64,000 nucleotides of DNA from Alphaproteobacteria bacterium (GCA_030831315.1 JAURLI010000072.1:20-64019); one strand, 5' to 3'. Shown: positions 9,166-42,163, counted from the stretch's first letter. A program made the numbers and translations. Notes: generated by a model from the letters alone, not told the origin.

Positions 9166-9178
9166 GAACGGGAAAGGT

Positions 9179-23268: not shown

Positions 23269-23483
23269 GGCAAGGCTCCCTGGCAATCGGGCTCTTCAAG
23301 GCCCCTCGTTCATGGTTTCATTGATAGCCCTCAGGCGGCAGGGATACAAGACGGCTGGAAGCCGGCAGTAGAGATTTTTTCGAATTTCAAAATTGTTTTC
23401 TTTATTTTCTTTGTACGGGCGCTTGGCTATTGTCGTCCCGGGCGCCTTCCTGCCCCGCGACGACCACAACCGGAACCACGGCG
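23269..23483. promoter_or_regulatory. Divergent promoter region with an AT-rich island (23371-23414)
   Basis: 215-nt spacer between divergent genes. It contains gagattttttcgaatttcaaaattgttttctttattttctttg, which stands out against the GC-rich background. Confidence 0.4.
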
Positions 23484-24545: not shown

Positions 24546-24566
24546 TCCACCCGGGAGAACCGCCCC

Positions 24567-25358
24567 ATGGCGCGCAAGACCACATCCAAAGCCAAGACCG
24601 CGAAGAAACCACGCACTACCAAGGCGGCGCCCGCAAAGGGCCGGCGCAGCGATCCCCTGAAGGCGCACGAGCAGAAGCTCTTCGATCTCGCCAACGGCCA
24701 GTTCGAATCGGCTGCCTACAAGCGCATGTTCGCGGCCCCTTGGACGAAGAAGGGCGTGCAGCAGTTCTTCATGCAGCATGCCCAGTTCAACCTGAACCGG
24801 CGCGATTGCTGGGGCCATGTCCAGGGCTCCGCCCCCCTCGCCGTAAAGAAAATCGTATGGGAGCACGAGGAAGAGGAACTCGGCGGCGTTGCCGCGCGCG
24901 GCGGCGCCAATCACTACGAGCTTGCGGTTCAGCAGGGAGCATCCTTCGGACTCAAGCCAAAGGACTATTACGACGCTCCGACGATGGATGGGTCCTTCGT
25001 TTCCTTCCAGGCGTGGCTGCACATCGCCCAGCATTCGCACTGGCTCGAGGCCTTCGCCGCCTCTGCCGCGCTCGAATATTCGAACTCGGAAAAGGTCATT
25101 CGCGGTGGCTGCCTGTCGCGCCGCATGGGTGAAAAGCTCCAGAAGGAGCTCGGCATCCCGATGAAGAAACAGTATTCGAACGAGGAACACGTCACCGCCG
25201 ACGTCGCCCACGGCGAATTGCTGATCACCATCGGCCGCATGTACGGCGACACGCAGGAAGCGCGTGACCTAATCATGGCGGGCGCGGTCAAGAGCTGGAC
25301 CGTGGACCGCGTGTTCCGGAACTTCCTCGCCAGCCTGCTGGAGGACTGCGCCCGCTAG
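24567..25358 (+). CDS. TenA/PqqC/CADD-like heme-oxygenase-fold protein (putative di-iron enzyme) with basic N-terminal tail
   Basis: 263 aa, GGGAGAA upstream. Candidate ligand motifs are WEHEEEELGG...NHYEL, ALEYSNSE and EEHVTADVAHGE (H-x3-D-x2-H). Paralog of 52343..53074, more distantly of 39331..40104. Confidence 0.75.
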   Translation: MARKTTSKAKTAKKPRTTKAAPAKGRRSDPLKAHEQKLFDLANGQFESAAYKRMFAAPWTKKGVQQFFMQHAQFNLNRRDCWGHVQGSAPLAVKKIVWEHEEEELGGVAARGGANHYELAVQQGASFGLKPKDYYDAPTMDGSFVSFQAWLHIAQHSHWLEAFAASAALEYSNSEKVIRGGCLSRRMGEKLQKELGIPMKKQYSNEEHVTADVAHGELLITIGRMYGDTQEARDLIMAGAVKSWTVDRVFRNFLASLLEDCAR

Positions 25359-26354: not shown

Positions 26355-27410
26355 GTGAGCCAAGCGAAAGACAAGCCGGGAGGCATCGGAGCGGAAAAGC
26401 GCGATGCCTTCGACCGTCGGGTGCGGGACAGGAACCTGCTCGGCTACTGGATGATTCCCAACCGCTCCGACGGCCACCGCGAGCCCGAACCGGGCTACGG
26501 CGTCCATCTCTGGCACTGGTCGGAGATGCAGGCGATCCTCGACGAGGCCGTCGACAACATCCCCAAGGAAGAAGCCCACCGCCGCTTCATCGGCTACCAG
26601 CATCCCGATCTCAAGATGGGCACGACGCCTAACCTGATGCTCGGCGCCCAGATGCTGATGCCGGGCGAGATGGCGCCCTGCCACCGTCACACGATGGATG
26701 CCGTGCGCTTCGTCGTCGAAGGCGACGGCAGCACCTGTACCGTGGTCGAAGGCGAAGAATTCCCGATGGCGCGCGGCGATCTCGTCACCACGCCGAACTG
26801 GAGCTGGCACGACCACATTTCCGGCGGCGCCAGCCGGACGATCTGGATGGACGCCGCGGTGGCGCCACTGACGACTCATTTCCGTATCGGTTTTGCCGAC
26901 CTGCACCAGGCGCCGCAGCAGACCGTGACGCGCCCGCGCGGCTGGTCGGCGGCCCAGTTCGGTCCGCTGCGGGCGAAGAACCGGGAGTACTCTGCCACCG
27001 CTTACCGCCCGCCTTACCGCTATCCCTGGGTCGAAACGAAAGCCGCCCTCGATGTCCTTGCCGAAGGTGCCGGCGACCCGTACGAGGCCGTGACTCTCTC
27101 CTTTGCCGATCCCCTTTCCGGCGGGCCAACGCTGCCCACCGTCGATTGCGAACTGACAATGCTGCGATCTGGAGAAAAGACTCGTTCCCACCGCCACACG
27201 GCGGCGGCGATCTATCATGTCTTTCAAGGACGCGGCAGCGCTGCGGTCGGAGACGCTCGCGTCGCATGGGAAGAAGGCGATACCTTCGTCGTGCCCAGCT
27301 GGGCCTGGCATGGGCTGGAAAACCGCGGCAGCGAACCCGCGCTGCTGTTTTCCATAAACGACGGCCCGGTGATGAATGCGCTCGGATTCTGGCGGGAAGA
27401 GCGCAGATAA
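26355..27410 (+). CDS. Gentisate 1,2-dioxygenase-family bicupin
   Basis: 351 aa, GTG start after GGGAGG. N-cupin motif MPGEMAPCHRHTMDAVRFVVEGDG...TPNWSWHDH. The C-cupin retains SHRHTAAAIYHVFQGRG. Confidence 0.85.
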   Translation: MSQAKDKPGGIGAEKRDAFDRRVRDRNLLGYWMIPNRSDGHREPEPGYGVHLWHWSEMQAILDEAVDNIPKEEAHRRFIGYQHPDLKMGTTPNLMLGAQMLMPGEMAPCHRHTMDAVRFVVEGDGSTCTVVEGEEFPMARGDLVTTPNWSWHDHISGGASRTIWMDAAVAPLTTHFRIGFADLHQAPQQTVTRPRGWSAAQFGPLRAKNREYSATAYRPPYRYPWVETKAALDVLAEGAGDPYEAVTLSFADPLSGGPTLPTVDCELTMLRSGEKTRSHRHTAAAIYHVFQGRGSAAVGDARVAWEEGDTFVVPSWAWHGLENRGSEPALLFSINDGPVMNALGFWREERR

Positions 27411-27485: not shown

Positions 27486-28550
27486 ATGAAGATATCCGCT
27501 TCGCTCCGCTTTGCCGCGCTTGCCGCCGTGACCGCGGCGGCCGTCGCAACGACACCGGCCGTCGCCGAGGTGTCCTTCAAGGGCAAGACGGTCAAGATCA
27601 TCATCAATTCGAAGCCGGGCGGCGGCACCGACGCCAGCGCCCGCCAGGTCGGCGCGCTGCTTGCCGACAATCTGCCGGGCAAGCCGCAGATCGTGTTCCA
27701 GAACCTTCCAGGCGGCGGCGGCATCAAGGCGAATAATTACTTCGCCGCTAAGGTCAAGGGTGACGGCCTGACCGCGCTGGCCGGATCGCGCACCCAGGTC
27801 AGCCCCTACAAGCTGCGCCACAAGAGCGTGAAATACGATCCGGGCAAGTACCGCTTTGTCGGCGGCACAGCCCGTCTCGGCACCATCATCCTGATCAACA
27901 AGGATCCGAAAATTCAGGCGCGGCTCATGGACAAGTCCCAGAAGCCGGTCGCCTTCGGCGCCATCGACGGCGAACGCACCGGCGACCATGCCGCCGTCTG
28001 GGCGATGGAATACCTCGGCTGGAATCTCAAGTTCGTGCTGGGCTACGCGGGCACGTCGGAAATGCTGCTGGCGGCGCGCCGCGGCGAAGTCGACATGGTC
28101 AACAACCAGACCGTGTTCAATGTCATGCCGCTAATGAACGACAACATGAAGGCGATCGTCCAGCTCGGCAACCGCGACGACAACGACAAGTTTGTCGAGC
28201 GCGTCGAATTCAAGGGCGTGCCGGTTCTGGGCGACATGCTGAAAGGCAAGCTCGACGCCAAGGCGGCAAAGTCCTACGCGGGCTGGCTCGACGACCAGAC
28301 CGTGGAAAAGTGGATCGCCCTGCCCGCCGGCACTCCCGACGACCTGACCAAGGCCTGGCGCGATGCCCATGACAAGGTGATGAAGGATCCCAAGTTCGTC
28401 GAGCTCGCCAAGCGGGAATTCGGCGGCGACTTCGGCTGGTATACGGGCCGGCAGATGGACAGCATCGTGAAAAATCTCGTCGCCACCACGGACGAGGACC
28501 TCGCCTTCTTCATCAACCTGCGCAAGAAGCACGGGCTGCCCATTCAGTAA
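27486..28550 (+). CDS. TctC/Bug-family binding protein (EVxFKGK subfamily, no C-terminal extension)
   Basis: 354 aa. Signal peptide MKISASLRFAALAAVTAAAVATTPAVAEV, motif NSKPGGGTDASARQVGALLADNLPGKP. Colinear with 1042..2364 and 47248..48561 but ends where their extra domain begins. Confidence 0.85.
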   Translation: MKISASLRFAALAAVTAAAVATTPAVAEVSFKGKTVKIIINSKPGGGTDASARQVGALLADNLPGKPQIVFQNLPGGGGIKANNYFAAKVKGDGLTALAGSRTQVSPYKLRHKSVKYDPGKYRFVGGTARLGTIILINKDPKIQARLMDKSQKPVAFGAIDGERTGDHAAVWAMEYLGWNLKFVLGYAGTSEMLLAARRGEVDMVNNQTVFNVMPLMNDNMKAIVQLGNRDDNDKFVERVEFKGVPVLGDMLKGKLDAKAAKSYAGWLDDQTVEKWIALPAGTPDDLTKAWRDAHDKVMKDPKFVELAKREFGGDFGWYTGRQMDSIVKNLVATTDEDLAFFINLRKKHGLPIQ

Positions 28551-28634: not shown

Positions 28635-30632
28635 ATGAAAGACCTTTACGATCCGTCGGCCATGCTCAATGGCTTCCTCGGCCTGATGACTCCGGCCGGG
28701 ATCGCCCTGATCATCGCCGGCACCGTCGTCTGCTCGATCTTCGCCGCCATGCCCGGCATCGGCACGCTGCTGCTGCTCTCGATGGTTCTGCCCTACGCGA
28801 TGAAGCTCGATCCCTTCCTGTGCATCGCGCTGCTCATCAGCATCGGCGCGGTCGGCGGCACGGCCAGCACGTTTTCGTCCGTCCTGATCGCAGTGCCGGG
28901 CACCGCCGGGTCACAGGCGACGATCCTCGACGGCCACCCGATGGCCAAGCGTGGCGAAGCCGCGCGCGCCTTCGGTGCCGCCTATGTCGGCTCCGCCGTC
29001 GGCGGCCTGTTCGGCGGGCTGGTCTTCGTACTCTCGCTGCCGGTGATGAAGCCGCTGGTCTTCGCGCTGGGATCGCCGGAATTCATGATGCTGGTACTGT
29101 GGGGCCTGTCGGCGGTCGGCGTGCTCTCGGGCAATGCGCCGGTGAAGGGCCTGATGGCGGCGGCACTTGGCCTCGGTCTGTCGCTGATCGGCACCGACGC
29201 GCGCACCGGCATAGAGCGCTTCACCTTCGAAGACTATTACCTGTGGAACGGCATCCACCTCGTCCTCATCGCGCTCGGCATCTTCGCCGTGCCGGAACTG
29301 GTGGACCTTTCCGTGCGTCGCACCTCGGTCGCGGAAGCGGGGCGCATCGGCAAAGGCCAATGGGAAGGCGCCAAGGACGTCTATCGTCATTGGTGGCTGG
29401 TGCTGCGCAGTTCCGTTGTCGGCGTCTGGGTGGGGATGATCCCCGGCCTCGGCTCCTCGGTCGCGGACTGGTTTGCCTATGCCCACGCGGTGCAGACGGA
29501 AAAGAACCCCGAAAAATTCGGCACCGGCGACGTGCGCGGCGTGCTGGCGCCTGAAAGCGCCAACAATGCCAAGGAAGGCGGCGACCTGATCCCCTCGATC
29601 CTGTTCGGCGTTCCCGGCGGCACATCGATGGCGCTGATGCTGACGGCCTTCATTTCCGTCGGCATACAGCCCGGAGAAAAGATGCTGGGCGAACAGTTGC
29701 CCTACCTCTACGCGATGCTGTGGGTGCTGATCATTTCCAACCTTATCGCCACCAGCATCTCGATGGGATTCGCCAACAGCTTCGCCAAGCTGTCGCTGGC
29801 ACCTTTCTACGCCATCGTGCCGATGACGCTGATCTTCTGCGTCGTCGCCGCCTTCAGCGCCAACTACGCCTGGGCCGACTTTCTGGTCCTGGCGATCTTC
29901 TCCGTCGTCGGCATCATCATGAAGCGCCACGGCTGGCCGCGCCCGCCCCTGCTGGTGGCCGTGGTGCTGGGGCCACAGTTGCAGAACTATCTGTGGCTGA
30001 CCGTGGAACGCTATGAGCCGCAGGAGTGGATGCTGCGCCCGGGCGTCATGGCCTTCGCCGCGCTGATCGCCCTTACCGTTGCCGTACCGATCATTCGCAA
30101 TCGCCGGCGCAAGGCGCGCGGCATGCACATGGATCTTGCCAGCGAAGGGCCGAAGGTCGGCCCGAAGGGCGATATCGCTATCGTCGCCTTCTATCTTGCG
30201 CTGGCGGCATTTGCCGTGAGCCAGGCCGTCGCCTGGCCGGCCAAGGCCGCGGTCCCGGTCTACGCCTTTGCCGCCTTCGGCAGCGCCCTTGCGGTCGCAC
30301 AACTGGCACTCAGCCTGATGGCGCTCAGGCGGAGCGGTAACGTCGCTTACGCGCCCACCGACGAAGACCGCGAGAAAGCACGCCGCTTCCGGGAAATCAT
30401 CCTGTGGATCGGGGGTTTGGGTGCCGGCATCATCGTTGTCGGCTTCACCGTGACGCTGTTCCTGTTTCCGCTGCTCTATGCGCGGCGCTACGGCGGCGGC
30501 TGGAAGCTGGCGCTCGGCATGGGCATCAGCGCGGTCGCCATATTGATCGGGATTTTCGACACGCTGATCCACATCATCTGGCCGGAACCGCTCGTCGAGC
30601 TGCTGTGGGACGCGATCTTCCCCGGCAAATAG
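28635..30632 (+). CDS. TTT permease: TctA domain fused to a C-terminal TctB-like four-helix module
   Basis: 665 aa. Residues ~1-500 are colinear with TctA (e.g. MIPGLGSSVADWFAYAHA, DLIPSILFGVPGG). Residues ~505-665 add four hydrophobic helices ending LLWDAIFPGK, comparable to the standalone TctB end FFWKFLEFPLP. Confidence 0.85.
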   Translation: MKDLYDPSAMLNGFLGLMTPAGIALIIAGTVVCSIFAAMPGIGTLLLLSMVLPYAMKLDPFLCIALLISIGAVGGTASTFSSVLIAVPGTAGSQATILDGHPMAKRGEAARAFGAAYVGSAVGGLFGGLVFVLSLPVMKPLVFALGSPEFMMLVLWGLSAVGVLSGNAPVKGLMAAALGLGLSLIGTDARTGIERFTFEDYYLWNGIHLVLIALGIFAVPELVDLSVRRTSVAEAGRIGKGQWEGAKDVYRHWWLVLRSSVVGVWVGMIPGLGSSVADWFAYAHAVQTEKNPEKFGTGDVRGVLAPESANNAKEGGDLIPSILFGVPGGTSMALMLTAFISVGIQPGEKMLGEQLPYLYAMLWVLIISNLIATSISMGFANSFAKLSLAPFYAIVPMTLIFCVVAAFSANYAWADFLVLAIFSVVGIIMKRHGWPRPPLLVAVVLGPQLQNYLWLTVERYEPQEWMLRPGVMAFAALIALTVAVPIIRNRRRKARGMHMDLASEGPKVGPKGDIAIVAFYLALAAFAVSQAVAWPAKAAVPVYAFAAFGSALAVAQLALSLMALRRSGNVAYAPTDEDREKARRFREIILWIGGLGAGIIVVGFTVTLFLFPLLYARRYGGGWKLALGMGISAVAILIGIFDTLIHIIWPEPLVELLWDAIFPGK

Positions 30633-30635: not shown

Positions 30636-31757
30636 CTAGCGGGGGATATTGTCCTCGTCGAGGTACCTGCCCATGGCGCAGGCGACTCCGCTCTTTTCCA
30701 GTTCCGCCAGGAACATCCGGTGGATGCGCGGATCCTGGTTTTGGTACTCGATCTGGTTGCCGCCCTTGTTGACGTCGATATCGACGCCGCGCTTGATGGC
30801 GCGTTTTTCCTCGGTGAAAGGATAGCGGGTCGAACCCATCGCGGTCGCGAGGTAACGCGCCGGAACGGCAGCCGTGTTGAAGTGCTGGTGCCAGATCATG
30901 TCGGTGGGCGCGAACACCGAGCCCTGCTTCCAGTCGAAGCGCTTCAGTTCTTCATCGCCATCGTGCCAAAACAGCGAATAACCGTGCCCCGACACGATGA
31001 AGACATGAAAGTCCGGCCCGTGACGGTGGCCCTTCTTGTAGGTGCCCACGCCCATCTGCGAACAATGGGCGTGCAGGTTGCCGTCGGCGAGGCAGAACTG
31101 CACATGGGCGCTGCCCGCCCCGCGCTGGTTCCATGACTGGACCTCGAAACCCGCGACATCGGCCACGAAATTAGTCTCCCACATCCTGAGCCCGCGATGC
31201 ACCGTGCTGCGCGCGCCGCTGCCTTCAAACCACGATCCATCGGCCCCTTCACGCAGCGGGAATTTCCAGCCGTTGGCGAAGATGAAGTCATCGTCATGGA
31301 TGAGATTCATGATCAGGCAGAGGTTGTTGGTGGAGGCCAGCCTTGCGCGCTCGCTGCCGGATCCGTTGAAGATCTGGTAGCGGGCGTTAAGCGGGATCGC
31401 AAACAGCGAATTCGGCCCCCATTCGAAACTGCGCTTTTCGCCGTTGGCCATCTCGATCGTCGTCGAGCCGTGGCCCGATACGACAAGGAACACCTCTTCG
31501 TAGAGATGCCCCTGGGGCACAGTCTTGGCCCCCGGGGCCAGATCGAACAGGAACACCGATACAAAATCGCCGCGGCCTTTCAGATGCACGAAGGCGGCTT
31601 CGACCCCTGCCCGCGCCCAGTGCGCGGTCGGTGCCGTGTGCAGATCGACGCAGAAATCCTCGATCACCGGCAGGCCCTCTGCCTCGCACCAGTCGAGGTA
31701 GGGCTCCAGCAGGATGCCGGTGTACTGGATCTGCTTCTTGAGGTCTTCGAGCGCCAT
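30636..31757 (-). CDS. Bicupin protein, paralog 1 of a tandem array (function unknown; metal site only in the C-terminal cupin)
   Basis: ORF track 30636..32297 trimmed to MALEDLKKQIQY.... The ATG shares 1 nt with the upstream stop (TGATG). Motifs FEWGPNSLFAIPLNARYQIFNGSG, MWETNFVADV, VGTYKKGHRHGPDFHVFIVSGHGYSLFW and WHQHFNT. Confidence 0.85.
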   Translation of the reverse strand: MALEDLKKQIQYTGILLEPYLDWCEAEGLPVIEDFCVDLHTAPTAHWARAGVEAAFVHLKGRGDFVSVFLFDLAPGAKTVPQGHLYEEVFLVVSGHGSTTIEMANGEKRSFEWGPNSLFAIPLNARYQIFNGSGSERARLASTNNLCLIMNLIHDDDFIFANGWKFPLREGADGSWFEGSGARSTVHRGLRMWETNFVADVAGFEVQSWNQRGAGSAHVQFCLADGNLHAHCSQMGVGTYKKGHRHGPDFHVFIVSGHGYSLFWHDGDEELKRFDWKQGSVFAPTDMIWHQHFNTAAVPARYLATAMGSTRYPFTEEKRAIKRGVDIDVNKGGNQIEYQNQDPRIHRMFLAELEKSGVACAMGRYLDEDNIPR

Positions 31758-32869
31758 CAGTATCCGCTTTCGTCGATGTATTCGCCCATCAGCGACGTGA
31801 CGCCGTTCTTGCGCAGCTCGGACAGGAACAGTGCATGAATGCGTGGGTCCTGATCGTGATATTCGATCTGGTTGCCGCCCTTCTTCACGTCCACGTCGAC
31901 GCCGAGCGTGATCTGTTTCTTGGCGGTGGTCAGCGGATAGCGCGTGGAACCGAGCGCCAGCGGCAGATAGCGCGCCGGGTTGGGCCCGGTGTTGAAATGT
32001 TGGTGGAAGATGTTGTCTACCGGCGCAAACACGACGCCGGGCGCCCAGTCGACGCGGCGGAAGTCCTTGTCGCCTTCGAACCAGAACAGCGAATAGCCGC
32101 TGCCCGAAAGCAACAGCACATGGAAGTCGGCACCGTGGCGATGGCCCTTCTTGTAGGTACCGACGGCCATTTCCGAGGTGTGTACGTGCACCACCCCGTC
32201 GGCCAGCGCGAAGCGCATGTTGGACGACCGCCCGCCGCGCTTTTCCCAGCCTTCGAGCTTGAAGTTGGCGACATCGGCGACAAAGTTGGTTTCCCACATG
32301 AAGCGTCCGGGCTGGGTTTCGATCTTTTCGCCCTCGCCGTCGAAATAGCCGGGCTTTCCGATGCGGCCGGGAAACAGCGCGTCATTGGCGAAGATGAAAT
32401 CGCGGTCGTGAAAGATGTTCAGCATGATCGGCAGCGAATTGGCCGAGATCAGACGCGCCTTCTCGCGCCCCGATCCGTTGAAATGCTGGTATCGCGTATT
32501 GAGCGGCAGCGCGAACAGGGAATTCGGCCCCCATTCGAAAGTGTGCCGTGTCCCATCGATCTCCACCATGGTCGAGCCATGGCCCGACAGGACGTAGATC
32601 ACCTCTTCATAGACGTGACGCTGGGGAAGCGTCTTGCCACCGGGCGCCAGATCAAGGACGAACAGGGCCATGAAGTCGCCGCGCCCATCCAGATGTACAA
32701 AGGCCGCATCGGCGCCGAGCCGCGGCCAGGGCGCGGTTTTTACCTCGTGCAGGTTGACGGCGAATTCCCGCACGACGGGCACGCCTTCGTCCGCGCTCCA
32801 TTCGAGATAAGGATCGCGCAGGTAGTCGATGCCTTCGCGCCCCTGTGGCGCTTCTTCGGTCGCACTCAT
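31757..32869 (-). CDS. Bicupin protein, paralog 2 of the tandem array
   Basis: ORF track 31757..33184 trimmed to MSATEEAPQGREGIDYL.... The start overlaps the upstream stop (ATGA). Same motif set (FEWGPNSLFALPLNTRYQHFNGSG, VGTYKKGHRHGADFHV, FHQHFNTG). Confidence 0.85.
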   Translation of the reverse strand: MSATEEAPQGREGIDYLRDPYLEWSADEGVPVVREFAVNLHEVKTAPWPRLGADAAFVHLDGRGDFMALFVLDLAPGGKTLPQRHVYEEVIYVLSGHGSTMVEIDGTRHTFEWGPNSLFALPLNTRYQHFNGSGREKARLISANSLPIMLNIFHDRDFIFANDALFPGRIGKPGYFDGEGEKIETQPGRFMWETNFVADVANFKLEGWEKRGGRSSNMRFALADGVVHVHTSEMAVGTYKKGHRHGADFHVLLLSGSGYSLFWFEGDKDFRRVDWAPGVVFAPVDNIFHQHFNTGPNPARYLPLALGSTRYPLTTAKKQITLGVDVDVKKGGNQIEYHDQDPRIHALFLSELRKNGVTSLMGEYIDESGY

Positions 32870-33975
32870 TCCCTGATAAAACCTTCCATCTTCGGGGCGA
32901 GGCCGATCTTTTCCATCGCCTCCACGTACATGCGGTGAATGCGCGGGTCCTGATCCCCGTATTCGATCTGGTTGCCGCCCTGTTTCACGTCGACGTCGAT
33001 GCCCTGGTATATGCGCCACATGTTCTGGGTGAAGGGATAGCGCACGCTGCCGTGGCCGACGGCGAGGTAACGCACCGGCTCTGCCCCAGTATTGAAATGC
33101 TGGTGGAACATCATGTCGGGCGGCGCGAACACCCAGCCGTGGCACCAGTCGACGCGGGTAATGTCGTCGTCGCCTTCGTACCACAGCAGCGAGTAGCCGG
33201 TGCCCGACAGGCAGTAAACGTGAACGTCCGGCCCATGCCGGTGCGCCTTCTTGTAGGTGCCGACGGGCATTTCCGAGACATGGGCATGCAGGATGCCGTC
33301 AGCGAGGATGAGCTGGATATGCGAGCCGCCCGCCCCGCGCGCCGCCCATTTCTCGAGCTTGAGATCGGTCGCATCGGGCACGAAATTGGTTTCCCACATG
33401 TGCTTGCCCGGACGCACGGCGATGAAGTCGCCATCGCCCCGGAAATGTCCCTCTCCGCCCTCGCGCTCGGGAAAGCGCGCCAGATTGTCGAAAACGAAGC
33501 TCTCGCTGTGGAACAGGTTCATCACGGCGGGCAGGTTCGACGATACGGCGAGGCGCACCGGTTCGGAGCCCGAGCCGTTGAAATGCCGGTAGCGGGCGTT
33601 GAGCGGCGGCGCGAAAATGCTGTTGGGACCCCATTCGAAGGTGTGGCTGCGGCCTTCGCTGTCCTCAACCGTCGTGGTGCCGCGCCCCGACAAGACGTAA
33701 ACGACCGATTCGCAGAGATGACGCACGGGCGCGCTGGCGCCCCCCGGCGGAATTTCCCAGACGAACACGGTCATGAAATCGCCGCGTCCCTGCACGTGGG
33801 CGATGGCGCCGTTCACGCCGAAACGCGGCCACGGCTTGACGTCGAGATCGAGAAGATTGAAGCCGAAGGCTTCGAAGATCGGCACCCCCTGCCCCTTCGC
33901 CCATTCAAGGTAGGGATCCACCATGAACTTTCCGGCGGGAACCGCGGCACCAGTCTGGGAGGTCTCGGACGCCAT
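32866..33975 (-). CDS. Bicupin protein, paralog 3 of the tandem array
   Basis: ORF track 32866..34041 trimmed to MASETSQTGAAVPAGKF..., 10 nt after the stop of UbiD paralog B. Motifs FEWGPNSIFAPPLNARYRHFNGSG, VGTYKKAHRHGPDVHV and FHQHFNTG. Confidence 0.85.
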   Translation of the reverse strand: MASETSQTGAAVPAGKFMVDPYLEWAKGQGVPIFEAFGFNLLDLDVKPWPRFGVNGAIAHVQGRGDFMTVFVWEIPPGGASAPVRHLCESVVYVLSGRGTTTVEDSEGRSHTFEWGPNSIFAPPLNARYRHFNGSGSEPVRLAVSSNLPAVMNLFHSESFVFDNLARFPEREGGEGHFRGDGDFIAVRPGKHMWETNFVPDATDLKLEKWAARGAGGSHIQLILADGILHAHVSEMPVGTYKKAHRHGPDVHVYCLSGTGYSLLWYEGDDDITRVDWCHGWVFAPPDMMFHQHFNTGAEPVRYLAVGHGSVRYPFTQNMWRIYQGIDVDVKQGGNQIEYGDQDPRIHRMYVEAMEKIGLAPKMEGFIRE

Positions 33976-33985
33976 CACCTGTCCT

Positions 33986-35455
33986 TCAGTCCCGCAGGAA
34001 CTTGAGCTTGTCGCGCCACTTGGCGCGGACTTCCTCGGCATAGCCCTTGCTCACCGCATTGACCTTTGGGAAGTCGTCCTTCCAGTGCCAGGGCCGGACG
34101 GCGTAGACGATCATGCGCGAATTGGTGATGTCGTCTTTTTCGCGCTTTTCAGGCGACAGCGCCGGGTCGATATGCCCAGTCCAGCAGCCGTCGATGATGT
34201 CGGTCTGGGTCTTGGGGTCCCAGCGCGTCGCCATCGCCCACATCACCTCGGCGGGCTTGGTGATGTCGATATCGTCGTCGACGACCACGATCATGCGCGC
34301 CATGTAGGCACCCGGCCGGCATCCCGCCAGCACAAGGCCCGCCATCTTGGCGTGGCCCGCGTGCATCTGCTTGATCGAGACCACCGGAATGAAGCGCGAG
34401 CCGCCGCCCTGCAACAGCCACACGCCGGTCACCCCCGGCACGCCCGCGCCTTCCAGCGCGTCCCACAACCCGGCAAGGCGCGGAATTTTGATCTGGCGGC
34501 CCGGATAGTTGGGCTTCACCGGCGGCTGACCGAGGATGATCGGATCGTTGCGATGATAGACGGCCTTAACGTGGACCACCGGCTCCGGCCGGTCGGCGGA
34601 TGCGTAATAGCCCGGCCATTCGCCGAACGGCCCCTCGGTCGCCGATTCCTTGTCGAGCGGCGGCATGAAGCCCTCGAAAACCAGTTCCGCGTCCGCCGGG
34701 AAAGGCAGGCCCGTATGCTTGCCGCGCACGGTCTTGACCGCCTGTCCGACGCGCCCGCCGGCAATCGCCAACTCGCTCTCGCCGTCCTTGGCCGAAAGCG
34801 AGGCGACGACGCCCAGAACCGGCGCCTGTCCGACGACGACGGCGATCGGGCAGGCCTCGCCCTTGTCCCAGTATTTCTTGCGGATCACGTCGCCGTGCTT
34901 GCCGGGTTCTATGAACACGGACAGGCGCTTGTCGTCCTGGATCATCACGCGATAGGTGCCGATGTTCACCCAGTCGCTGTCGGGATCCTTGGTCACGATC
35001 AGGCATTCTGTGCCGATGTAATTGCCGCCGTCGCCTTCGTGCCAACGCGGCGCCGGGTAGTTCGACAGGTTGACCGCGGCACCCTCGACGATGTTGTCCA
35101 TGACCGGGCCGCTGTTGACGTCCTGGGGCGGGATCGGCTCGCTTTTCTGCTTGGGCCGCGCGCGATAGGCGCGCACCGCATCGAGGCTGATATCGCCGAC
35201 CAGGAAGCGCGATGTGCGCACGTTCGAAAGGATGCGAAAGCGCGGATCGAAGCCGGGAATATCCTCGAACAGCAGCACCGGCGGATAGGTATGCTCGTTC
35301 GAAAGTTCGAACAGCGCGCCGATTTCAAGGTCGGCCTTTGCCCCTTTGACGCGCACCAGCTCGCCCTCGGCCTCGGCCTCGCGCAGGAAGACGCGCAGGT
35401 CGGCCATCGCCTCCTGCCGCCGTTCGCGCACATCGTCTTTTTTGCTTTCCGCCAT
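33986..35455 (-). CDS. UbiD-family decarboxylase, paralog B (short class, 489 aa)
   Basis: Motifs WVNIGTYRVMI, TEGPFGEWPGYYAS, QMHAGHAKMAGL and WDPKTQTDIIDGCWTGHIDP. Embedded between bicupin genes. Confidence 0.9.
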   Translation of the reverse strand: MAESKKDDVRERRQEAMADLRVFLREAEAEGELVRVKGAKADLEIGALFELSNEHTYPPVLLFEDIPGFDPRFRILSNVRTSRFLVGDISLDAVRAYRARPKQKSEPIPPQDVNSGPVMDNIVEGAAVNLSNYPAPRWHEGDGGNYIGTECLIVTKDPDSDWVNIGTYRVMIQDDKRLSVFIEPGKHGDVIRKKYWDKGEACPIAVVVGQAPVLGVVASLSAKDGESELAIAGGRVGQAVKTVRGKHTGLPFPADAELVFEGFMPPLDKESATEGPFGEWPGYYASADRPEPVVHVKAVYHRNDPIILGQPPVKPNYPGRQIKIPRLAGLWDALEGAGVPGVTGVWLLQGGGSRFIPVVSIKQMHAGHAKMAGLVLAGCRPGAYMARMIVVVDDDIDITKPAEVMWAMATRWDPKTQTDIIDGCWTGHIDPALSPEKREKDDITNSRMIVYAVRPWHWKDDFPKVNAVSKGYAEEVRAKWRDKLKFLRD

Positions 35456-35484
35456 GCTCTCCGCCTGTTACCCGACCTTCCGGC

Positions 35485-36585
35485 TCACGCCGGGGCCATG
35501 ACCTCGAAACCGTTCTTCGCGCATTCCTCGACATAGGTATTCCAGATCCACGAACGCAGGTCGGGATCGAGGTCCTTGTAGTGAATCAGCTTGCCGCCTT
35601 CCGACACATGCTTGTGCGACTTGTCGAACAGATGGTTGATCGGCAGCTTGCGCGAGCGCAGCTTGATGGCGAGCTGCACGCTGACCGGGTCCGTGCCGAA
35701 ATGCCCATGCCACCACATGTTGGGCGGCACGATCACGCCGATGTCGTCCTCGGGCCAATCGAAGCGCTCCATGGCGCCGTTCTCCTGCCACATCAGCGAA
35801 TAGCCCTTGCCCGACAGGTTGAACACGAAGGCCGAAGGCCCGTGCCGGTGCGGGTTGAAGAAACGAAGCCCCGGATGCTCGGCGATGTGCACGGAAATGA
35901 CGCTGTTCGCCATCTCGAAATAGGCGGTGTTGTTGCCAACGCCCTTTTCGCGGAAGGACGACCGCTGCACGCCGAGCACATCGGGCACGAAGGTCGTCTC
36001 ATAAAGGTTGACCGCGGTCTTGTTGTGATTGGGGTCCGGTTCGAACAGCACGGCTTCGGACGGGTCGATATCGGCTTCGATGCGGTTGAAGTCGTAATCG
36101 AGGCCGAAGACGAACTTGCGGTCGCGGTAGAGGTTGTAAACGATGGGTATGGTGTTGACGCTGACGAAGCGCGCCGGCTCGCTGCCCGACCCGTTGTGCA
36201 GCTGGTAGCGGCAATTCATGGGGATGGCGAACAGCGAACGCGGGCCCCATTCGAAAGACACCTTGCCCTTCGCGGTTTCGACCGTCGCATTGCCGTGACC
36301 CGCCATGATGTAGATGCATTCGTCGGCAAGCTGGCGCCACGGCGCGCTCGATTTGCCCGGTGCCAGTTCGCCCACGAACATACCGGCAAGGGATTCGGCG
36401 CCGATCAGGTCGACGAAGGCAGCACCGATGCCGCGCTCGGCCCAGGGCGCCACGGGAAAACTTTTCAGCGGGCCGAAGGCATAGCCGCGATGCAGCGCAA
36501 GGCCTAGGTCGTCCTCCACCCATTTTTCGTAGGCCGTGCGCCCATCCCAGGGAACGCCCGTATGCTTTTCGCGAACCGTGACCAT
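35485..36585 (-). CDS. Bicupin protein, divergent paralog 4
   Basis: ORF track 35485..36600 trimmed to the ATG at 36585 (GGGAGGA 3 nt upstream). Motifs FEWGPRSLFAIPMNCRYQLHNGSG, LYETTFVPDV, FFNPHRHGPSAFVFNLSGKGYSLMW and WWHGHFGT. Confidence 0.85.
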   Translation of the reverse strand: MVTVREKHTGVPWDGRTAYEKWVEDDLGLALHRGYAFGPLKSFPVAPWAERGIGAAFVDLIGAESLAGMFVGELAPGKSSAPWRQLADECIYIMAGHGNATVETAKGKVSFEWGPRSLFAIPMNCRYQLHNGSGSEPARFVSVNTIPIVYNLYRDRKFVFGLDYDFNRIEADIDPSEAVLFEPDPNHNKTAVNLYETTFVPDVLGVQRSSFREKGVGNNTAYFEMANSVISVHIAEHPGLRFFNPHRHGPSAFVFNLSGKGYSLMWQENGAMERFDWPEDDIGVIVPPNMWWHGHFGTDPVSVQLAIKLRSRKLPINHLFDKSHKHVSEGGKLIHYKDLDPDLRSWIWNTYVEECAKNGFEVMAPA

Positions 36586-36858
36586 TAATCCTCCCGACAC
36601 TTACTCGCGCTGCGGCGGAGAAAAAGGACGGGAACGGATGCGATGGAAAACCGCTGCGCTGCGCGCCTTGCGGTCCCGGACCTCCCTGTCTTTTTTTTCG
36701 CGTCGTTGCGCTCTTTTGTTTATTTTACACCGGCAGCCCCGTCGCGCCAGTGCCCATCTCGTCCGTTTCTCCTGGTTTTCAACGCTTCGCGGCCTTTTCC
36801 CGATTGACCGGAAAAATTCCGATTATCAGAATGACGTAAAAGCACCAATCGAGAGACA
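36586..36858. promoter_or_regulatory. Divergent promoter region (bicupin/UbiD operon versus IclR gene)
   Basis: 273-nt spacer with a T-run (cttttttttcg), ttttgtttattttaca and ggaaaaattccgattatcagaatgacgtaaaa patches. No specific site can be defined. Confidence 0.35.
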
Positions 36859-37719
36859 ATGCCAAAACCGCCAGCGAAAACTGCCCGCCACGCCGCCGCC
36901 ACGCCGAGATCGCCGAAGAACGCCAACCGTTCGGTCGGCATCGGCCTGGCCGTGCTTCAGGCCATCGCCGGACTCGGCCGCGCCGGCACGTTGTCTGAAA
37001 TCGCGCGGGCCGCGCGCATGCCGGCAAGCCGCACGCACCGCTTCCTTGCCGGCATGATCCAGGTCGGCGCGGTGCGCCAGGATCCTGTTTCGGGCCGCTA
37101 CGACCTTGGGCCGCTGATGGTCGATCTCGGCGTGGCGGCGCTCGGCCGCGTCGACGGGGTCAAGTCGGGCAGCGAGGCCCTCGCCCGCCTGACCGAACGC
37201 ACGGGCCTTGTGTCCGTGCTCGTCATCTGGTCCACCAACGGACCTACCGTAATCCGCTGGGAACAGGGCGAACTGGCAACCGCCATCCGCATCCGCGAAG
37301 GGCGCAACCTGTCGCTGTTGCGCACGGCATCGGGAAAGATTTTTCTCGCTCACCTCGGGTCCGAAAAAACCGGGGAGCTGGTCGATACCGAATTGGCGAG
37401 TGCCGCGCACAGGGCGAGCACTTCGCCGCTGCGCACGCTCGATGACGTCGAAAAGGAAAAACTGCGCGTGCGTTCCGAAGGCATTGCCGACAATCCAGGC
37501 GAGTCGGATCTCGGCATAGCCGCCCTCGCGGCTCCCGTATTCGGCGCCGCCGGCACGCTGGCGATGGTCATCGCGCTGATCGGGGTGCATGGCGTCGCCC
37601 AGCTCGACCGCCACGGGCCTTCTGCTACGGCACTCAGGGAAGCTGCCGACGAGGTGACGCTCAGCCTGGGAGGGCGCCCTGCCACGGCGCCACGGCTGCC
37701 CGTGCGCCCGGCAACCTGA
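36859..37719 (+). CDS. IclR-family transcriptional regulator
   Basis: 286 aa. SVGIGLAVLQAIAGLGRAGTLSEIARAARMPASRTHRFLAGMIQVGAVRQDPVSGRYDLGP plus an effector domain. Confidence 0.9.
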   Translation: MPKPPAKTARHAAATPRSPKNANRSVGIGLAVLQAIAGLGRAGTLSEIARAARMPASRTHRFLAGMIQVGAVRQDPVSGRYDLGPLMVDLGVAALGRVDGVKSGSEALARLTERTGLVSVLVIWSTNGPTVIRWEQGELATAIRIREGRNLSLLRTASGKIFLAHLGSEKTGELVDTELASAAHRASTSPLRTLDDVEKEKLRVRSEGIADNPGESDLGIAALAAPVFGAAGTLAMVIALIGVHGVAQLDRHGPSATALREAADEVTLSLGGRPATAPRLPVRPAT

Positions 37720-37720: not shown

Positions 37721-39310
37721 CTAGTCGATCCGCTTGCGCACGTTGCGCAGCTTGGCGCCGGTCTCGAAATGGCGTCCCTCAACAGCGAGCTGCGCCTCTT
37801 CTTCCAGTTCCTTCGTCCACGCGCCGAGCTGGTAGCCGTACCAGGGCGAGCGCAGATCGAGGGCGGGCAGTTGCAGCTCGCGCCAGATGTCGAGCGCGCG
37901 TTCCATGTATTCCCTGCGCGGCAACGAGATCGGCGGGTAATCCCAAGGCATCGTCGCGTCGATCAGCAGGCCCGTGGATACCGGCGCCTCCGCCGTGGCG
38001 ATGCCGCGCGAGGTACCCGGCGGCGCCACCGAAGGATCGAGGGCCAGAAGCGGGGTCTCGATCGACTTGACGTCGACATGCGGGCGCACCCGCCATGCGA
38101 CCGCCCACAGGATATGCTCCAGCGAGGTGATGTCGATATCCTCGTCCACGGCGATCGCGAACTTGCCGATGTATTTCGACGCGAGATGCTCGAGCGCCTT
38201 CATACCCTCGTCGGCGCTGTGCTTCTTCAGCTTGACGACGACGAGGGAATTGGCGCCGCCGCATTCGAGATAGTCGAGATCGCTCACGGTCGTGAAACCG
38301 GCATCGATCAGAAACTTCTTGGCCGCCGCCGACCGGCCGAGGTGACGCATCATCGAGGATTCGGACGGCGGCAGTTGCGACAGGATGGCGAGGTAGATGG
38401 GCTTCCTGCGCATGGTGATGCAGGTCACGTCCATGAAGAAGCTGTAGTCGCGCTGGGCCATGTAGCCGGGGAACTCGCCGAAGGGGCCTTCCATCTCGAC
38501 CTCGCTGGTCGGCACGGTACCTTCGATGACGATTTCCGCCTCGGCCGGAACCAGCAGGTCCTGCGTGCGACATTTGACCAGATCGAGCGGCTTGCCCGCG
38601 ATGGAGCCGGCGACGTCGTATTCGCACATGTCGTTGGGAATGCGGGTAACGGCGGTATAGCTGACGTGCGGCGGCGCCCCCAGCACGATGGCGGCCGGCA
38701 TGCGCTCGACCCCCGCCGCGCGCCACAGGTCGATGTGGTTGCGCATGCCGACGCCGAGCATGGCGGGCAACGTGCCGATGCGGTCCGGCGCCTTGACCAT
38801 GCCGCGGTAGTTGCCGAGGTTGTGCAGGCCCGTTTCCGGGTCCTTGCTGACCCAGTGCGAGGCCGAGGTATAGGGGGCGTTGTCGAACCCGGGCGTCGAA
38901 ATCGGCACCGGCAGAAGGTCGAGGCCTCCGGTCTTGAGCCGCTCGCCCTCGATCACGACCTCCTGGCAGGAACCGGTCGCCACCACGTTCGATGGCGTCG
39001 GGTTCTTCATCGCCTGCGCCCACCGGTCCGGGATCTCGTCCACCGCGCAGCCCATGCCGAGTGCATAGATTTCGGAAGATCCCGCCATCGCGCCGACCAG
39101 CACGGGCATGTCGTACTTGCGCCCCCTCGCGTCGTGGACGTTTTCGAACAGGAAGGCCTTGCGCTTGGCTTCCGGCAGGCCGCGGAACTGCAGCCGCACG
39201 AGCGGATGCAGTTCGGTGTCCTTGTTGATCGGCACCGTGACGCGCACGAGCTTGTCGGCGGCTTCCAGCGCCGCGACATATTCGGCGAGATTGCGATAGG
39301 ACCGCGCCAT
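37721..39310 (-). CDS. UbiD-family decarboxylase, paralog C (long class, 529 aa)
   Basis: ORF track 37721..39640 trimmed to MARSYRNLAEYVAALEAADKLVRVTVPINKDTELHPLV... (AAGGGAAAGGA upstream). Motifs HNLGNYRGMV and MEGPFGEFPGYMAQ. C-terminal extension WDYPPISLPRREYMERALDIWRELQLP. Confidence 0.9.
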   Translation of the reverse strand: MARSYRNLAEYVAALEAADKLVRVTVPINKDTELHPLVRLQFRGLPEAKRKAFLFENVHDARGRKYDMPVLVGAMAGSSEIYALGMGCAVDEIPDRWAQAMKNPTPSNVVATGSCQEVVIEGERLKTGGLDLLPVPISTPGFDNAPYTSASHWVSKDPETGLHNLGNYRGMVKAPDRIGTLPAMLGVGMRNHIDLWRAAGVERMPAAIVLGAPPHVSYTAVTRIPNDMCEYDVAGSIAGKPLDLVKCRTQDLLVPAEAEIVIEGTVPTSEVEMEGPFGEFPGYMAQRDYSFFMDVTCITMRRKPIYLAILSQLPPSESSMMRHLGRSAAAKKFLIDAGFTTVSDLDYLECGGANSLVVVKLKKHSADEGMKALEHLASKYIGKFAIAVDEDIDITSLEHILWAVAWRVRPHVDVKSIETPLLALDPSVAPPGTSRGIATAEAPVSTGLLIDATMPWDYPPISLPRREYMERALDIWRELQLPALDLRSPWYGYQLGAWTKELEEEAQLAVEGRHFETGAKLRNVRKRID

Positions 39311-39330
39311 GCCGGTATCCTTTCCCTTGC

Positions 39331-40104
39331 TTATTTCTTGCTGACGCGCACGCCCGCCTTCGCTTTCTCGTAGCAGGCATCGAGCATCTGGCAATAGAGA
39401 TCGACCGGCGTCAAAGCGCAGTATTCGAACGGATAGCCCGGTCGCTCCGTCACCCCCTTCGTCAGGATGCGGCGCAGCACGTGCTTGGTGACGGAGGAAT
39501 GCGCCTCGCGTCCCAGGTGGTCCTGCGTGTCGGCCTCGTGATGTTTGTGGAAGTAATCGGCCTGCTTTGGCGTCAGCTTGTAGTGCTTGGTCAGCGCCTT
39601 GTACCAGCGCATGCAGGACCAGCCGAAAGCCCCTTCCCACAGGACGGATGCCCAGTATTCATGCATGGCGCCATCGTTGACCAGGGTGCGATGGAAGTCG
39701 GTCAGCGCACGCGCCTCGGGCATCATCGGGCGGGTGAGAATCTGGTCCGCCGTGAGACTCAGGGCCTTGCCCGAGGAAATCAGGATCTTGATGTGGCCCG
39801 GGGGCTCCGGATGGCCGAATTCGTCGAGCACCTTGTGGGTATAGGTCTCCATCAGGTCGACGTTGGAGACGAAGAAGGACAGATGCTTGTAGAACTGCAC
39901 CATATAGAGCGAGTTGATTACCGGCACGAAGGCGCCCCAGTTGGAATAGAACAGCTGGATCGTGCTCAGCGGCAGCTTGCCCTTTTCCAGATCCGTCATG
40001 AACCGGGTCTTCTCGACGGTCTTGTTCCAGCGGGCTTCGACCCGCTTCTGGAGGTCTTCCAGATACGGACCGACCTCCTTATTGGATATCTTCAGCGTTG
40101 TCAT
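39331..40104 (-). CDS. TenA/PqqC-like heme-oxygenase-fold protein (divergent third paralog)
   Basis: 257 aa, all-helical-looking sequence. Motifs VLDEFGHPEPPGHIKIL, VLWEGAFGW and FHKHHEADTQDHLG. Sandwiched between two UbiD genes with 20-nt and 52-nt spacers. Confidence 0.75.
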   Translation of the reverse strand: MTTLKISNKEVGPYLEDLQKRVEARWNKTVEKTRFMTDLEKGKLPLSTIQLFYSNWGAFVPVINSLYMVQFYKHLSFFVSNVDLMETYTHKVLDEFGHPEPPGHIKILISSGKALSLTADQILTRPMMPEARALTDFHRTLVNDGAMHEYWASVLWEGAFGWSCMRWYKALTKHYKLTPKQADYFHKHHEADTQDHLGREAHSSVTKHVLRRILTKGVTERPGYPFEYCALTPVDLYCQMLDACYEKAKAGVRVSKK

Positions 40105-40156
40105 GACGTTACCTGCCCTTTCTGCGCCAAGGCGCCATCGTTCGAATTTTTTTCAT

Positions 40157-41620
40157 TCAGTCGTCAAGAAACTTGAGCCGGTCGCGCCAGCGGGCGCGAA
40201 CTTCCTCGGCATACTCGCGGCTGACCGCATTGACCTTCGGGAACTGGTCCTTCCAGTGCCACGGACGCACGGCGTAGATGATGATGCGCGAATTGGTCGT
40301 GTCCCCCGCCGCCCGCTTTTCCGGCGGCAGCACGGGATCGAGATAGCCCGACCAGCAGCCGTCGATGATGTCGGTCTGTGTCTTCGGGTCCCAGCGCGTC
40401 GCCATCGCCCAGACGACCTCGGCCATGCTGGTGATGTCGATGTCGTCGTCGACCACGATGGTCATGCGGCCGAGGAATGCCGCAGGCGCCGCGCCGGTGG
40501 CGACGAGGCCCGCCATCTTGGCGTGGCCCGCGTGCATCTGGCGGATGGCAACGACGTTTATGAAACGGGTACCGCCCGCCGAAAGTTTCCAGACACCGGT
40601 GACACCGGGCACGCCCGCGCCTTCGAGGGCGTCCCAGATCGCCGCCGCGCCCGCGATATGGGTCTGGCGCCCGGGCAGCGTCGGACGCACCGGCGGCTGG
40701 CCGATCAGGATGGGATCGTTGCGGTGATAGACCGCTGTGACCCGCGTCGCCGGCTCGTCCCGCCGGCCCGACGCGTAATAGCCCGGCCATTCGCCGAAGG
40801 GACCTTCCGGGCGAGTTTCGACATCGGGCGATACCATCAGGCCTTCGACGGCGATTTCCGCATCGGCGGGAATCGGCAGCCCAGTTTTCGACCCCTTGAT
40901 GACCTCGATGGCACGGCCGATCTGGCCGCCCGCGATGGCAAGCTCGGAAATGCACTGCCCGTAGCCCACCCGCGCCACGCTGCCCAGTACCGGCGCCTGG
41001 CCGAAGCAGACGACAACGGGGCAGGCCTCGCCGCGCTCCCAGTACTTGCGGCGGATGACGTCGCCGTGCTTGCCCGGTTCGGTGAACACGGTCAGCGTGC
41101 GACGATCATGCACCTGGGTGCGGTAGGTGCCGACGTTGATCCAGTCGCTGTCGGGGTCCTTCATGATGACGACGCATTCGGTGCCGAGATAGACGCCGCC
41201 GTCGTCTTCGTGCCAGACGGGCTGGGGAAAGCGTGTCATGTCCACATGATCGCCTTCCATCACGTTTTCCATCACCGGGCCGCTTGCCACCTCGCGCGGG
41301 GGGATCGGCTCGGCCTTGCGCTTGTCCCTGCAGGCGCGATAGGCGCGCACGGCGTCGAGGTTCAGCTCGCCCACCATCAACGGCGAAGTACGCACGTTCA
41401 TGATCACCCGGCAGCCGGGCGCGCAACCCTTCATGTCCTTGAACAGCAGGACCGGCGGGTAGAGTTGTTCGAGGCTGAGCTCGTAAAGGGCGCCCATCTC
41501 GCGGTCCGGATCGGCGCCTGCGACGACCTGCACCTCGCCGCGGCTTTCGGAAATGCGCAGGAATTCGCGCAACGACGCGATCGCCGCGGTCTTTTTGTCG
41601 TTGACGCGCGCATCGCTCAC
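40157..41620 (-). CDS. UbiD-family decarboxylase, paralog D (short class; start uncertain)
   Basis: ORF track 40157..41734. Alignment with paralogs B and F suggests the GTG at 41620 (VSDARVNDKKTAAIASLREFL...), but no clear SD precedes it; the ATG at 41734 remains possible. Motifs WINVGTYRTQV and PEGPFGEWPGYYAS. Confidence 0.85.
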   Translation of the reverse strand: MSDARVNDKKTAAIASLREFLRISESRGEVQVVAGADPDREMGALYELSLEQLYPPVLLFKDMKGCAPGCRVIMNVRTSPLMVGELNLDAVRAYRACRDKRKAEPIPPREVASGPVMENVMEGDHVDMTRFPQPVWHEDDGGVYLGTECVVIMKDPDSDWINVGTYRTQVHDRRTLTVFTEPGKHGDVIRRKYWERGEACPVVVCFGQAPVLGSVARVGYGQCISELAIAGGQIGRAIEVIKGSKTGLPIPADAEIAVEGLMVSPDVETRPEGPFGEWPGYYASGRRDEPATRVTAVYHRNDPILIGQPPVRPTLPGRQTHIAGAAAIWDALEGAGVPGVTGVWKLSAGGTRFINVVAIRQMHAGHAKMAGLVATGAAPAAFLGRMTIVVDDDIDITSMAEVVWAMATRWDPKTQTDIIDGCWSGYLDPVLPPEKRAAGDTTNSRIIIYAVRPWHWKDQFPKVNAVSREYAEEVRARWRDRLKFLDD

Positions 41621-41734
41621 GACGGCTGCCGGACGCAAATCCAGCCTCTTGAACCCGGTAAAATCCCCGCCTGCACGCCGGCATCTCCCTGTGCGGTCAA
41701 AATGGCGGATTTCTGCTGTTTTTCTGGCCGCCAT

Positions 41735-41851
41735 CGGGACCCCGAGGGGCCCGATTCAGGGATAGACAAGGGTAGTCCTTCATGCAAGTCTAAAAATCGA
41801 AATGCGTTCTGTTTTTGTGAATATCAGAAAAATAACCGGGGATTCGCAGGG
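41735..41851. promoter_or_regulatory. Divergent promoter region (UbiD-D operon versus Rieske operon), AT-rich
   Basis: Contains gcaagtctaaaaatcgaaatgcgttctgtttttgtgaatatcagaaaaataacc, the most AT-rich stretch for several kb. Confidence 0.35.
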
Positions 41852-42163
41852 ATGAGCAGGGATTACGTCGTCGGCCGGATCGAGGACATTCCCGACAAGG
41901 GTTCGGTGGCGGTTCGCGCCGGCAGGCAGACGATCGCCGTGTTCCGGGACGGTGAAAGTTTCTACGCCATCCACGACAATTGCCCGCACAAGGGCGGACA
42001 CATGTGCCAGGGCGAATTCGAGCCGCAGAACGCCCTTGTCCGCTGCCCGATCCACCTTTGGGGCTGGAGCCTCAGGACCGGCGAACTCGAGACCGATACG
42101 CGCCAGATGATCCGCACCTACCCCGTGAAGGTGGTGGACGGTCAGGTCGTCCTCAGCGCATGA
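41852..42163 (+). CDS. Small Rieske [2Fe-2S] domain protein (NirD/ferredoxin-like, 103 aa)
   Basis: Hidden in the spurious 39962..42163 track ORF. MSRDYVVGRIEDIPDKGSVAV...HDNCPHKGGHMCQGEFEPQNALVRCPIHLWGW carries the CxH...CxxH cluster ligands. Confidence 0.8.
   Translation: MSRDYVVGRIEDIPDKGSVAVRAGRQTIAVFRDGESFYAIHDNCPHKGGHMCQGEFEPQNALVRCPIHLWGWSLRTGELETDTRQMIRTYPVKVVDGQVVLSA

Follow-up and report, generated by a model that had tools for sequence, protein, structure and literature searches.

In a stretch of 64,000 nucleotides (nt) from an uncultured soil bacterium of the Alphaproteobacteria (GCA_030831315.1, JAURLI010000072.1:20-64019; hereafter the window, to which coordinates refer unless a locus is named), five genes of the minus strand form one operon, in which four copies of a two-barrel cupin (bicupin) accompany a UbiD-family decarboxylase, here called UbiD-B. 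The bicupin family is large, uncharacterised and placed within the cupin metalloenzymes; it is not a new kind of system. Their C-terminal barrel carries a conserved histidine cluster resembling the three-histidine (3-His) metal site of gentisate 1,2-dioxygenase (GDO), and the synteny of UbiD and bicupin genes is conserved in many uncultured Alphaproteobacteria. Taken together, these features lead us to a tentative reading, to which we give somewhat less than an even chance: a catabolic operon in which the bicupins would be ring-cleaving enzymes using Fe(II) and O2, the paralogues would be homo-oligomeric isozymes, and UbiD-B would serve the same pathway.

The operon genes were read directly from the minus strand between 30600 and 36900 (Table 1). 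Their order, bicupin-4, UbiD-B, bicupin-3, bicupin-2, bicupin-1, is the one given in a preliminary description made from the sequence, and the ATGA and TGATG overlaps and the short gap between UbiD-B and bicupin-3 reported there were found as well. A promoter and terminator scan detected no terminator-like site in the minus-strand intergenic gaps of the operon; its sole minus-strand terminator-like match lies inside bicupin-1, the match count being at chance level. Between bicupin-4 and a divergent IclR-family gene, the only promoter-like match faces the IclR gene, and matches were no more numerous than expected by chance. The IclR-type protein probably regulates the operon. When a plasmid collection was searched by megablast with the 5.95-kb region, no match was returned.

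The four bicupins are paralogues, with a similarity far beyond chance. Copies 1 to 3 share 52-58% identity with one another and 33-36% with bicupin-4 (BLASTP E values of 1e-55 to 1e-163), a divergent paralogue that forms its own clade in the tree described below. The shared motifs quoted in the preliminary description are present in all copies, except that bicupin-3 reads WETNFVPDA where an ending in DV had been announced. The N-terminal variants HLYEE, HVYEE, HLCES and QLADE had been given correctly, HLCES being that of bicupin-3, whose C-terminal histidine cluster is intact. Relative to copies 1 to 3, bicupin-4 carries the second-shell substitutions H229S, K241F, K242N, D249S, H251F, Q291G and N294G, together with H84Q in the N-terminal barrel (residue numbers are those of bicupin-1 throughout).

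UbiD-B, of the prenylated flavin mononucleotide (prFMN) type, matches all three Pfam UbiD domains and falls below the cutoff of every NCBIfam equivalog. Its closest solved structure is 7PDA (E 2.7e-120), the phenazine-1-carboxylate decarboxylase PhdA of M. fortuitum (PMC10850782), to which it is far closer than to the pyrrole-2-carboxylate, ferulate, protocatechuate or UbiD-proper enzymes.

Table 1. Positions of the operon genes and of other features of the window (aa, amino acids).
Feature	Position	Strand	Remarks
bicupin-4	35485-36585	-	366 aa; first operon gene; GGGAGGA upstream of ATG
UbiD-B	33986-35455	-	489 aa; begins 29 nt past bicupin-4 stop; prFMN-type UbiD-family decarboxylase
bicupin-3	32866-33975	-	369 aa; ATG 10 nt past UbiD-B stop
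bicupin-2	31757-32869	-	370 aa; start overlaps bicupin-3 stop, ATGA 32866-32869
bicupin-1	30636-31757	-	373 aa; start overlaps bicupin-2 stop, TGATG 31755-31759
bicupin-4/IclR intergenic region	36586-36858		divergent; presumed promoter/operator region
IclR-family transcriptional regulator	36859-37719	+	divergent; Pfam HTH_IclR and IclR_C
Six UbiD genes	20721-22409(-), 33986-35455(-), 37721-39310(-), 40157-41734(-), 43394-45013(+), 48518-50110(+)		includes UbiD-B
TctC-like proteins	1042-2565(-), 19579-20676(-), 22216-23286(-), 27486-28550(+), 45066-46175(+), 47215-48561(+), 50134-51186(+), 58686-59957(-)		

Family, fold and putative active site

When 1.84 billion representative proteins were searched with a HMMER profile, the family of the bicupins came to 482 clusters (50% identity) at E<=1e-30 and 1486 clusters at E<=1e-10, whose members bear generic names only. 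A database search gave more than 4,200 significant relatives, called 'hypothetical', 'cupin domain protein' or the like and coming mostly from alphaproteobacterial metagenome bins, with no named isolate among the matches. In Pfam, the N-terminal barrel (residues ~70-140) weakly matched Cupin_2, and copy 3 alone had a Cupin_1 score, of 19.4 bits against a cutoff of 22. Over Pfam and NCBIfam together, Cupin_2, Auxin_BP and far sub-threshold GDO matches were all that was returned, and no curated model beyond Cupin_2 fits. A literature search on bicupin-UbiD pairing and on ring cleavage by bicupins found nothing concerning this family. The preliminary description had been unable to assign the family to a characterised enzyme, which is borne out by Pfam, NCBIfam, the Protein Data Bank (PDB), Foldseek and the cluster names.

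An AlphaFold2 model of bicupin-1, built on an alignment of 51 family members, has two beta-barrels (pLDDT 89, pTM 0.88). All Foldseek matches to it in the PDB are generic bicupins (MncA, oxalate decarboxylase, vicilins, quercetinase), with template modelling (TM) scores of 0.44-0.48 and 10-14% identity, and PDB sequence and profile searches produced single-barrel matches only. Because the model is confident and Foldseek returned only generic bicupins, the predicted bicupin fold is taken as certain, with no close solved relative in the PDB. The best structural matches are OxdC, MncA and the 7S vicilins (E ~1e-15). OxdC and MncA have Mn sites with 3His-1Glu ligands in both barrels, whereas the N-terminal barrel of the bicupins lacks the histidine ligands. 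Assignment of the family to the oxalate decarboxylases, quercetinases or vicilins was rejected, since the TM score is only ~0.46.

In the alignment of 51 members, H231, H244, H246, H290 and H292 are invariant, and all lie in the C-terminal barrel, to which the intact histidine cluster had indeed been said to be confined. The cluster is whole in 60 of 62 tabulated sequences (the four window copies, which all retain it, and 58 from related loci). The C-terminal stretch KKGHRHG...SGxGYSLFW...RFDW...WHQHFNT has its aligned counterpart, AHRHT...GQGYSI...RFDW...WHEHCNT, in 3bu7, the gentisate 1,2-dioxygenase of S. pomeroyi, which the family profile matches at E 1.6e-7; its match to the catalytic N-terminal barrel of another gentisate 1,2-dioxygenase, 2phd, is below significance (E ~0.07). 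On the canonical cupin motifs, H244 and H246 (HRH) and H290 (WHxH) fall at the ligand positions of a putative GDO-type 3-His metal site, and H251 is a possible fourth ligand in every clade but that of bicupin-4. The invariant H231 and H292, together with K241, K242, R245 and R273, are close to the predicted ligands along the sequence.

The N-terminal barrel has Q82, H84, E88 and Y127 at the canonical positions, which is no standard metal site. This barrel had been called degenerate, and the loss of the canonical ligands agrees with that; the term does not suit its own set of H84, E87, E88 and Y127, each at least 90% conserved across the family, so that the barrel must be under selection for something. 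In the three GDO-like bicupins of the window (23430-24545, 26355-27410, 51208-52320), an invariant HRH...WHDH is found in the N-terminal barrel, and the opposite polarity noted earlier between the two groups therefore holds. The possibility that the operon bicupins are simply diverged copies of these neighbouring genes was rejected, because only one barrel aligns in a profile-profile comparison.

Related loci in other genomes

The comparison covered 28 genome loci (L001-L028), all from metagenome-assembled genomes and mostly from Alphaproteobacteria, and 13 metagenome contigs. One locus, L001, is nearly identical to the window (95-100% protein identity), and the order bicupin-4, UbiD, bicupin-3, bicupin-2, bicupin-1 is also present in L002, L004 and L017. 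A shorter core, made of UbiD, one bicupin and bicupin-1, occurs in L005-L007, L013 and L036-L041. A second type of triplet, in L008-L012 and L029, is arranged as GDO-like gene, Haem_oxygenas_2 gene, three bicupins and binding protein; in L008 and L009, no UbiD gene lies within 10 kb. Single bicupin copies were found in L014-L020, L022, L024-L026, L030 and L032, those of L014-L020 being of the bicupin-2 clade, and the copy number across related genomes is 1, 2, 3 or 5. Neighbours that recur elsewhere are UbiD, GDO-like, Haem_oxygenas_2, TctC/NMT1 binding protein, aldolase and aldehyde dehydrogenase genes. Some single copies adjoin MmgE/PrpD, class II aldolase, HpcH/HpaI aldolase or EutA-like ATPase genes, and not UbiD.

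In a neighbour-joining tree, bicupin-1, bicupin-2, bicupin-3 and bicupin-4 form separate clades, and gene position is conserved. The third gene of the second-type triplet is sister to the bicupin-1 clade, while the first and the second each fall in a separate clade, apart from bicupin-2 and bicupin-3. Two loci have tandem pairs of a bicupin-4-type gene and UbiD (L002, 2507-5105 and 5139-7743; L017, 2470-5079 and 5116-7755), and in the second pair the identity to the window genes is 64-65% for the bicupin and 44% for UbiD. In L023, a degenerate paralogue at 8988-10001 carries H244R and H290I and has lost both the FEWGP motif and the inter-domain loop. It shares 4 nt with the intact paralogue at 9998-11089, and may be a non-catalytic partner subunit.

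The EutA-like gene (PF06277) encodes an ASKHA ATPase of ~500 aa. It stands directly downstream of single bicupins in L030 (9134-10642) and L032 (4963-6474), and a few genes downstream of a bicupin triplet in L029 (11975-13498) and L011 (13463-14965). It has no counterpart in the window.

Possible function and assembly of the bicupins

The operon layout, paralogy, fold, conserved residues and synteny are observations; all that we propose beyond the existence of a conserved GDO-like 3-His site is inference, which takes in the metal, the use of oxygen, the class of substrate, the order of steps and the quaternary structure. At the C-terminal 3-His site, the bicupins would use O2 to open the ring of hydroxy-aromatic carboxylates in the manner of Fe(II) enzymes, with K241, K242, R245 and R273 holding the carboxylate groups of the substrate. 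Loss of a carboxyl group within this route would be the work of the PhdA-like UbiD-B, and the substrates would be taken up by TctC/TctA systems. The four copies would be isozymes, each assembling as its own homo-oligomer and acting on different but related substrates, and the start/stop overlaps would reflect operon compaction and translational coupling. The predicted pocket of bicupin-4 is clearly different, and this copy may perform the step most directly tied to the decarboxylase. Because of its substitutions from H229S to N294G listed above, it should bind a different, less anionic substrate.

The likeness to GDO-type enzymes (gentisate, salicylate and 1-hydroxy-2-naphthoate 1,2-dioxygenases; TIGR02272, NF049978) consists of two cupin barrels in ~350-390 aa, the HRH...GYS...FDW...WHxH 3-His signature, and residence in aromatic-acid catabolic clusters. 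However, the GDO site is in the N-terminal barrel and that of the operon bicupins in the C-terminal one, and the latter have their own N-terminal H/E/E/Y set and conserved tandem arrays. Several points count against the scheme as a whole. With the NCBIfam models for gentisate and 5-aminosalicylate dioxygenases, the bicupins score 19-24 bits, where the cutoffs are 442-650; the alignment with the local GDO-like profile (hhalign) spans 78 columns of one barrel only; the conserved H84/E87/E88/Y127 set is not accounted for; and no family member of tested activity was found. Cupin 3-His sites also support isomerase, decarboxylase and hydrolase chemistry. Lastly, bicupins 1 to 3 are identical at 20 of 20 tabulated positions of the C-terminal barrel, which weakens the idea of different substrates and, to the same extent, that of one catalytic and one structural subunit. 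To these points must be added the gene junctions and the behaviour of the bicupin-1 clade, considered below.

It could be that the bicupins are not oxygenases at all, and that they act on ring-fission products or polycarboxylates as metal-dependent isomerases, tautomerases, hydrolases or non-oxidative (de)carboxylases, for example in steps after the GDO-like dioxygenases encoded nearby or with substrates of the tricarboxylate type. We consider this rather unlikely. The triplets of L008-L012 and L029 directly follow GDO-like and Haem_oxygenas_2 genes, so that a separate ring-cleavage enzyme is already present there, and the single copies next to MmgE/PrpD, aldolase or EutA-like genes point the same way. 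Oxalate decarboxylase is among the top Foldseek matches, and K241, K242, R245 and R273, being basic, would go well with polycarboxylates; but its TM score is low, and HRH...WHxH is the signature of gentisate dioxygenases and not the 3His-1Glu Mn site of oxalate decarboxylase. A further alternative, which we judge very improbable, is that the bicupins, and chiefly copy 4, are accessory proteins that bind, mature or reactivate prFMN or the decarboxylase. Bicupin-4 does travel with UbiD as a cassette, a second gene of its clade standing directly upstream of UbiD in L002 and L017, and dedicated prFMN helpers, PhdC and LpdD, are encoded beside UbiD genes (PMC13040415). No window gene was identified as UbiX or PhdC, for which no homology search was run, and a composition filter, which is not a homology search either, picked out no further open reading frame (ORF) of 70-149 codons that looked coding beyond the genes already mapped; no UbiX candidate thus emerged among the small ORFs. 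The known helpers, however, have other folds, PhdC being HpaC-like (PMC13040415). Among Pfam and NCBIfam models only cupin families match the bicupins, with no homology to VdcD/LpdD or PhdC, and bicupin triplets and single copies occur without an adjacent UbiD gene in L008, L009 and L030-L032. The strictly conserved metal-type histidine cluster, moreover, suggests catalysis. The M. fortuitum phdA/phdB/phdC system resembles the operon through PhdA, the nearest solved relative of UbiD-B, and differs from it in that PhdC has a flavin-reductase fold; a paper on the phenazine-degradation locus of that species mentions no cupin.

A different question is whether the copies assemble together. The preliminary description took the overlaps as the signature of stoichiometric co-production, for example of a hetero-oligomer, which is a reasonable hypothesis that goes further than the evidence. 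Under it, bicupins 3, 2 and 1, or at least 2 and 1, would form a mixed complex whose ratio is fixed by translational coupling, perhaps a heterotrimer or hexamer, bicupin-4 being a separate enzyme paired with UbiD; we hold such a complex to be possible but doubtful. In related loci, where gene starts were chosen heuristically, 14 of 23 tandem bicupin junctions overlap by 4 or 1 nt, and the spacing is 2 nt or less in 18 of the 23. Among the 37 co-directional junctions of the window, only the two bicupin ones and pcaI/pcaJ are capable of a 4- or 1-nt overlap, and PcaIJ is a heteromer. The 4-nt or 1-nt overlap is retained in the UbiD-bicupin-bicupin-1 cores, also in L036-L041, where the bicupin-1 homologue is ~65% identical, and in the loci examined a bicupin-1-clade gene is always preceded by a paralogue and never stands alone. 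The overlapping L023 pair, in which one copy lacks H244 and H290, is what a non-catalytic partner would look like, and the top structural neighbours are bicupins that form trimers: OxdC, MncA and the vicilins assemble as trimers or hexamers, and in vicilins the trimers mix paralogues. A comparable case is that of the hydroquinone 1,2-dioxygenases PnpCD and HapCD, made of two different products of adjacent genes, one of them non-catalytic. There, one subunit is without ligands, whereas all window copies keep them and only the L023 paralogue (L023_1) has lost them; PDB sequence and profile searches detected no similarity to PnpC or PnpD at E<=1. The retention of every invariant histidine and second-shell residue by all four window copies speaks rather for separate enzymes. 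The variable copy number does so as well, since single-copy loci, of the bicupin-2 clade and others, indicate that one bicupin can suffice, and the first two genes of the L008-L012 triplets are not orthologous to bicupin-2 and bicupin-3. No bicupin-bicupin or UbiD-bicupin fusion was seen among the 150 best family representatives, and paralogue expansion affects the whole surrounding island (six UbiD, three GDO-like, three haem-oxygenase-like and ~9 TctC-like genes). Characterised GDO-type bicupins, finally, are known as homo-oligomers. On this question taken alone, independent isozymes are ahead, with roughly an even chance against a clearly smaller one for the heteromer. The most elaborate version, an obligate complex of bicupins 3, 2 and 1 (or 2 and 1) with an active GDO-like C-terminal site in every subunit, working on aromatic polycarboxylates as a fixed partner of the PhdA-like UbiD, appears unlikely.

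If the substrate of a single copy were found, thousands of genes could be annotated and the PhdA-like UbiD clade would be placed in a physiological context. The islands in which the family stands in conserved synteny with UbiD have as many as six UbiD genes, along with many carboxylate-binding proteins, GDO-like dioxygenases and haem-oxygenase-like proteins. Since L001-L028 are all metagenome-assembled and the matches include no named isolate, a whole route for the breakdown of aromatic (poly)carboxylates in soil and peat may be unstudied. A mixed complex, if true, would give ring-cleaving cupins a new quaternary arrangement, and uncultured soil Alphaproteobacteria a heteromeric ring-cleaving oxygenase of a new class, coupled to prFMN decarboxylation.

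The surrounding catabolic island

The 64-kb window is a paralogue-rich catabolic island. Besides the gene groups counted above (the GDO-like genes encoding bicupins, the haem-oxygenase-like ones being Haem_oxygenas_2-like), it contains two TctA permease genes, pcaGH, pcaB, pcaIJ, an Amidohydro_2 enzyme gene and two IclR regulator genes. Four of the six UbiD genes are PhdA-like, 60-64% identical to UbiD-B, and those at 37k and 43k share 47% identity.

The TctA permease at 28635-30632(+) has a C-terminal extension of ~200 aa past the TctA domain, and its gene ends 3 nt from the convergent bicupin-1 stop. The orphan TctC-like solute-binding proteins fall into 2-3 subfamilies. Several score under the Pfam threshold for TctC or only just reach it, and the partner of most is a UbiD gene, not a permease. 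Two ORFs, 19579-20676 and 50134-51186, had been candidates for further members of the bicupin family and were rejected, being TctC-like binding proteins.

A GDO-like bicupin gene followed by a Haem_oxygenas_2 gene (PF14518) is a recurrent pair, present in the window at 23430-25358(+) and 51208-53074(+) and also in L008-L012, L029 and L033, often directly upstream of a bicupin triplet. A conserved trio of UbiD, a Haem_oxygenas_2-like gene and UbiD is found in the window at 37721-41734(-), and in L001, L014 and L040; the product of its middle gene (39331-40104) is below the Pfam cutoff and has no PDB relative. The pcaI and pcaJ genes for the CoA-transferase subunits, at 16393-18023(-), may share a 1-nt start/stop overlap, and pcaH and pcaG are 2 nt apart. 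Just upstream of the Amidohydro_2 gene, the last part of a long spurious ORF hides the gene of a small Rieske-type [2Fe-2S] protein with the motif CPH...CPIH, at ~41840-42163(+); in L033-L035, too, Amidohydro_2 comes after a small Rieske gene of this sort.

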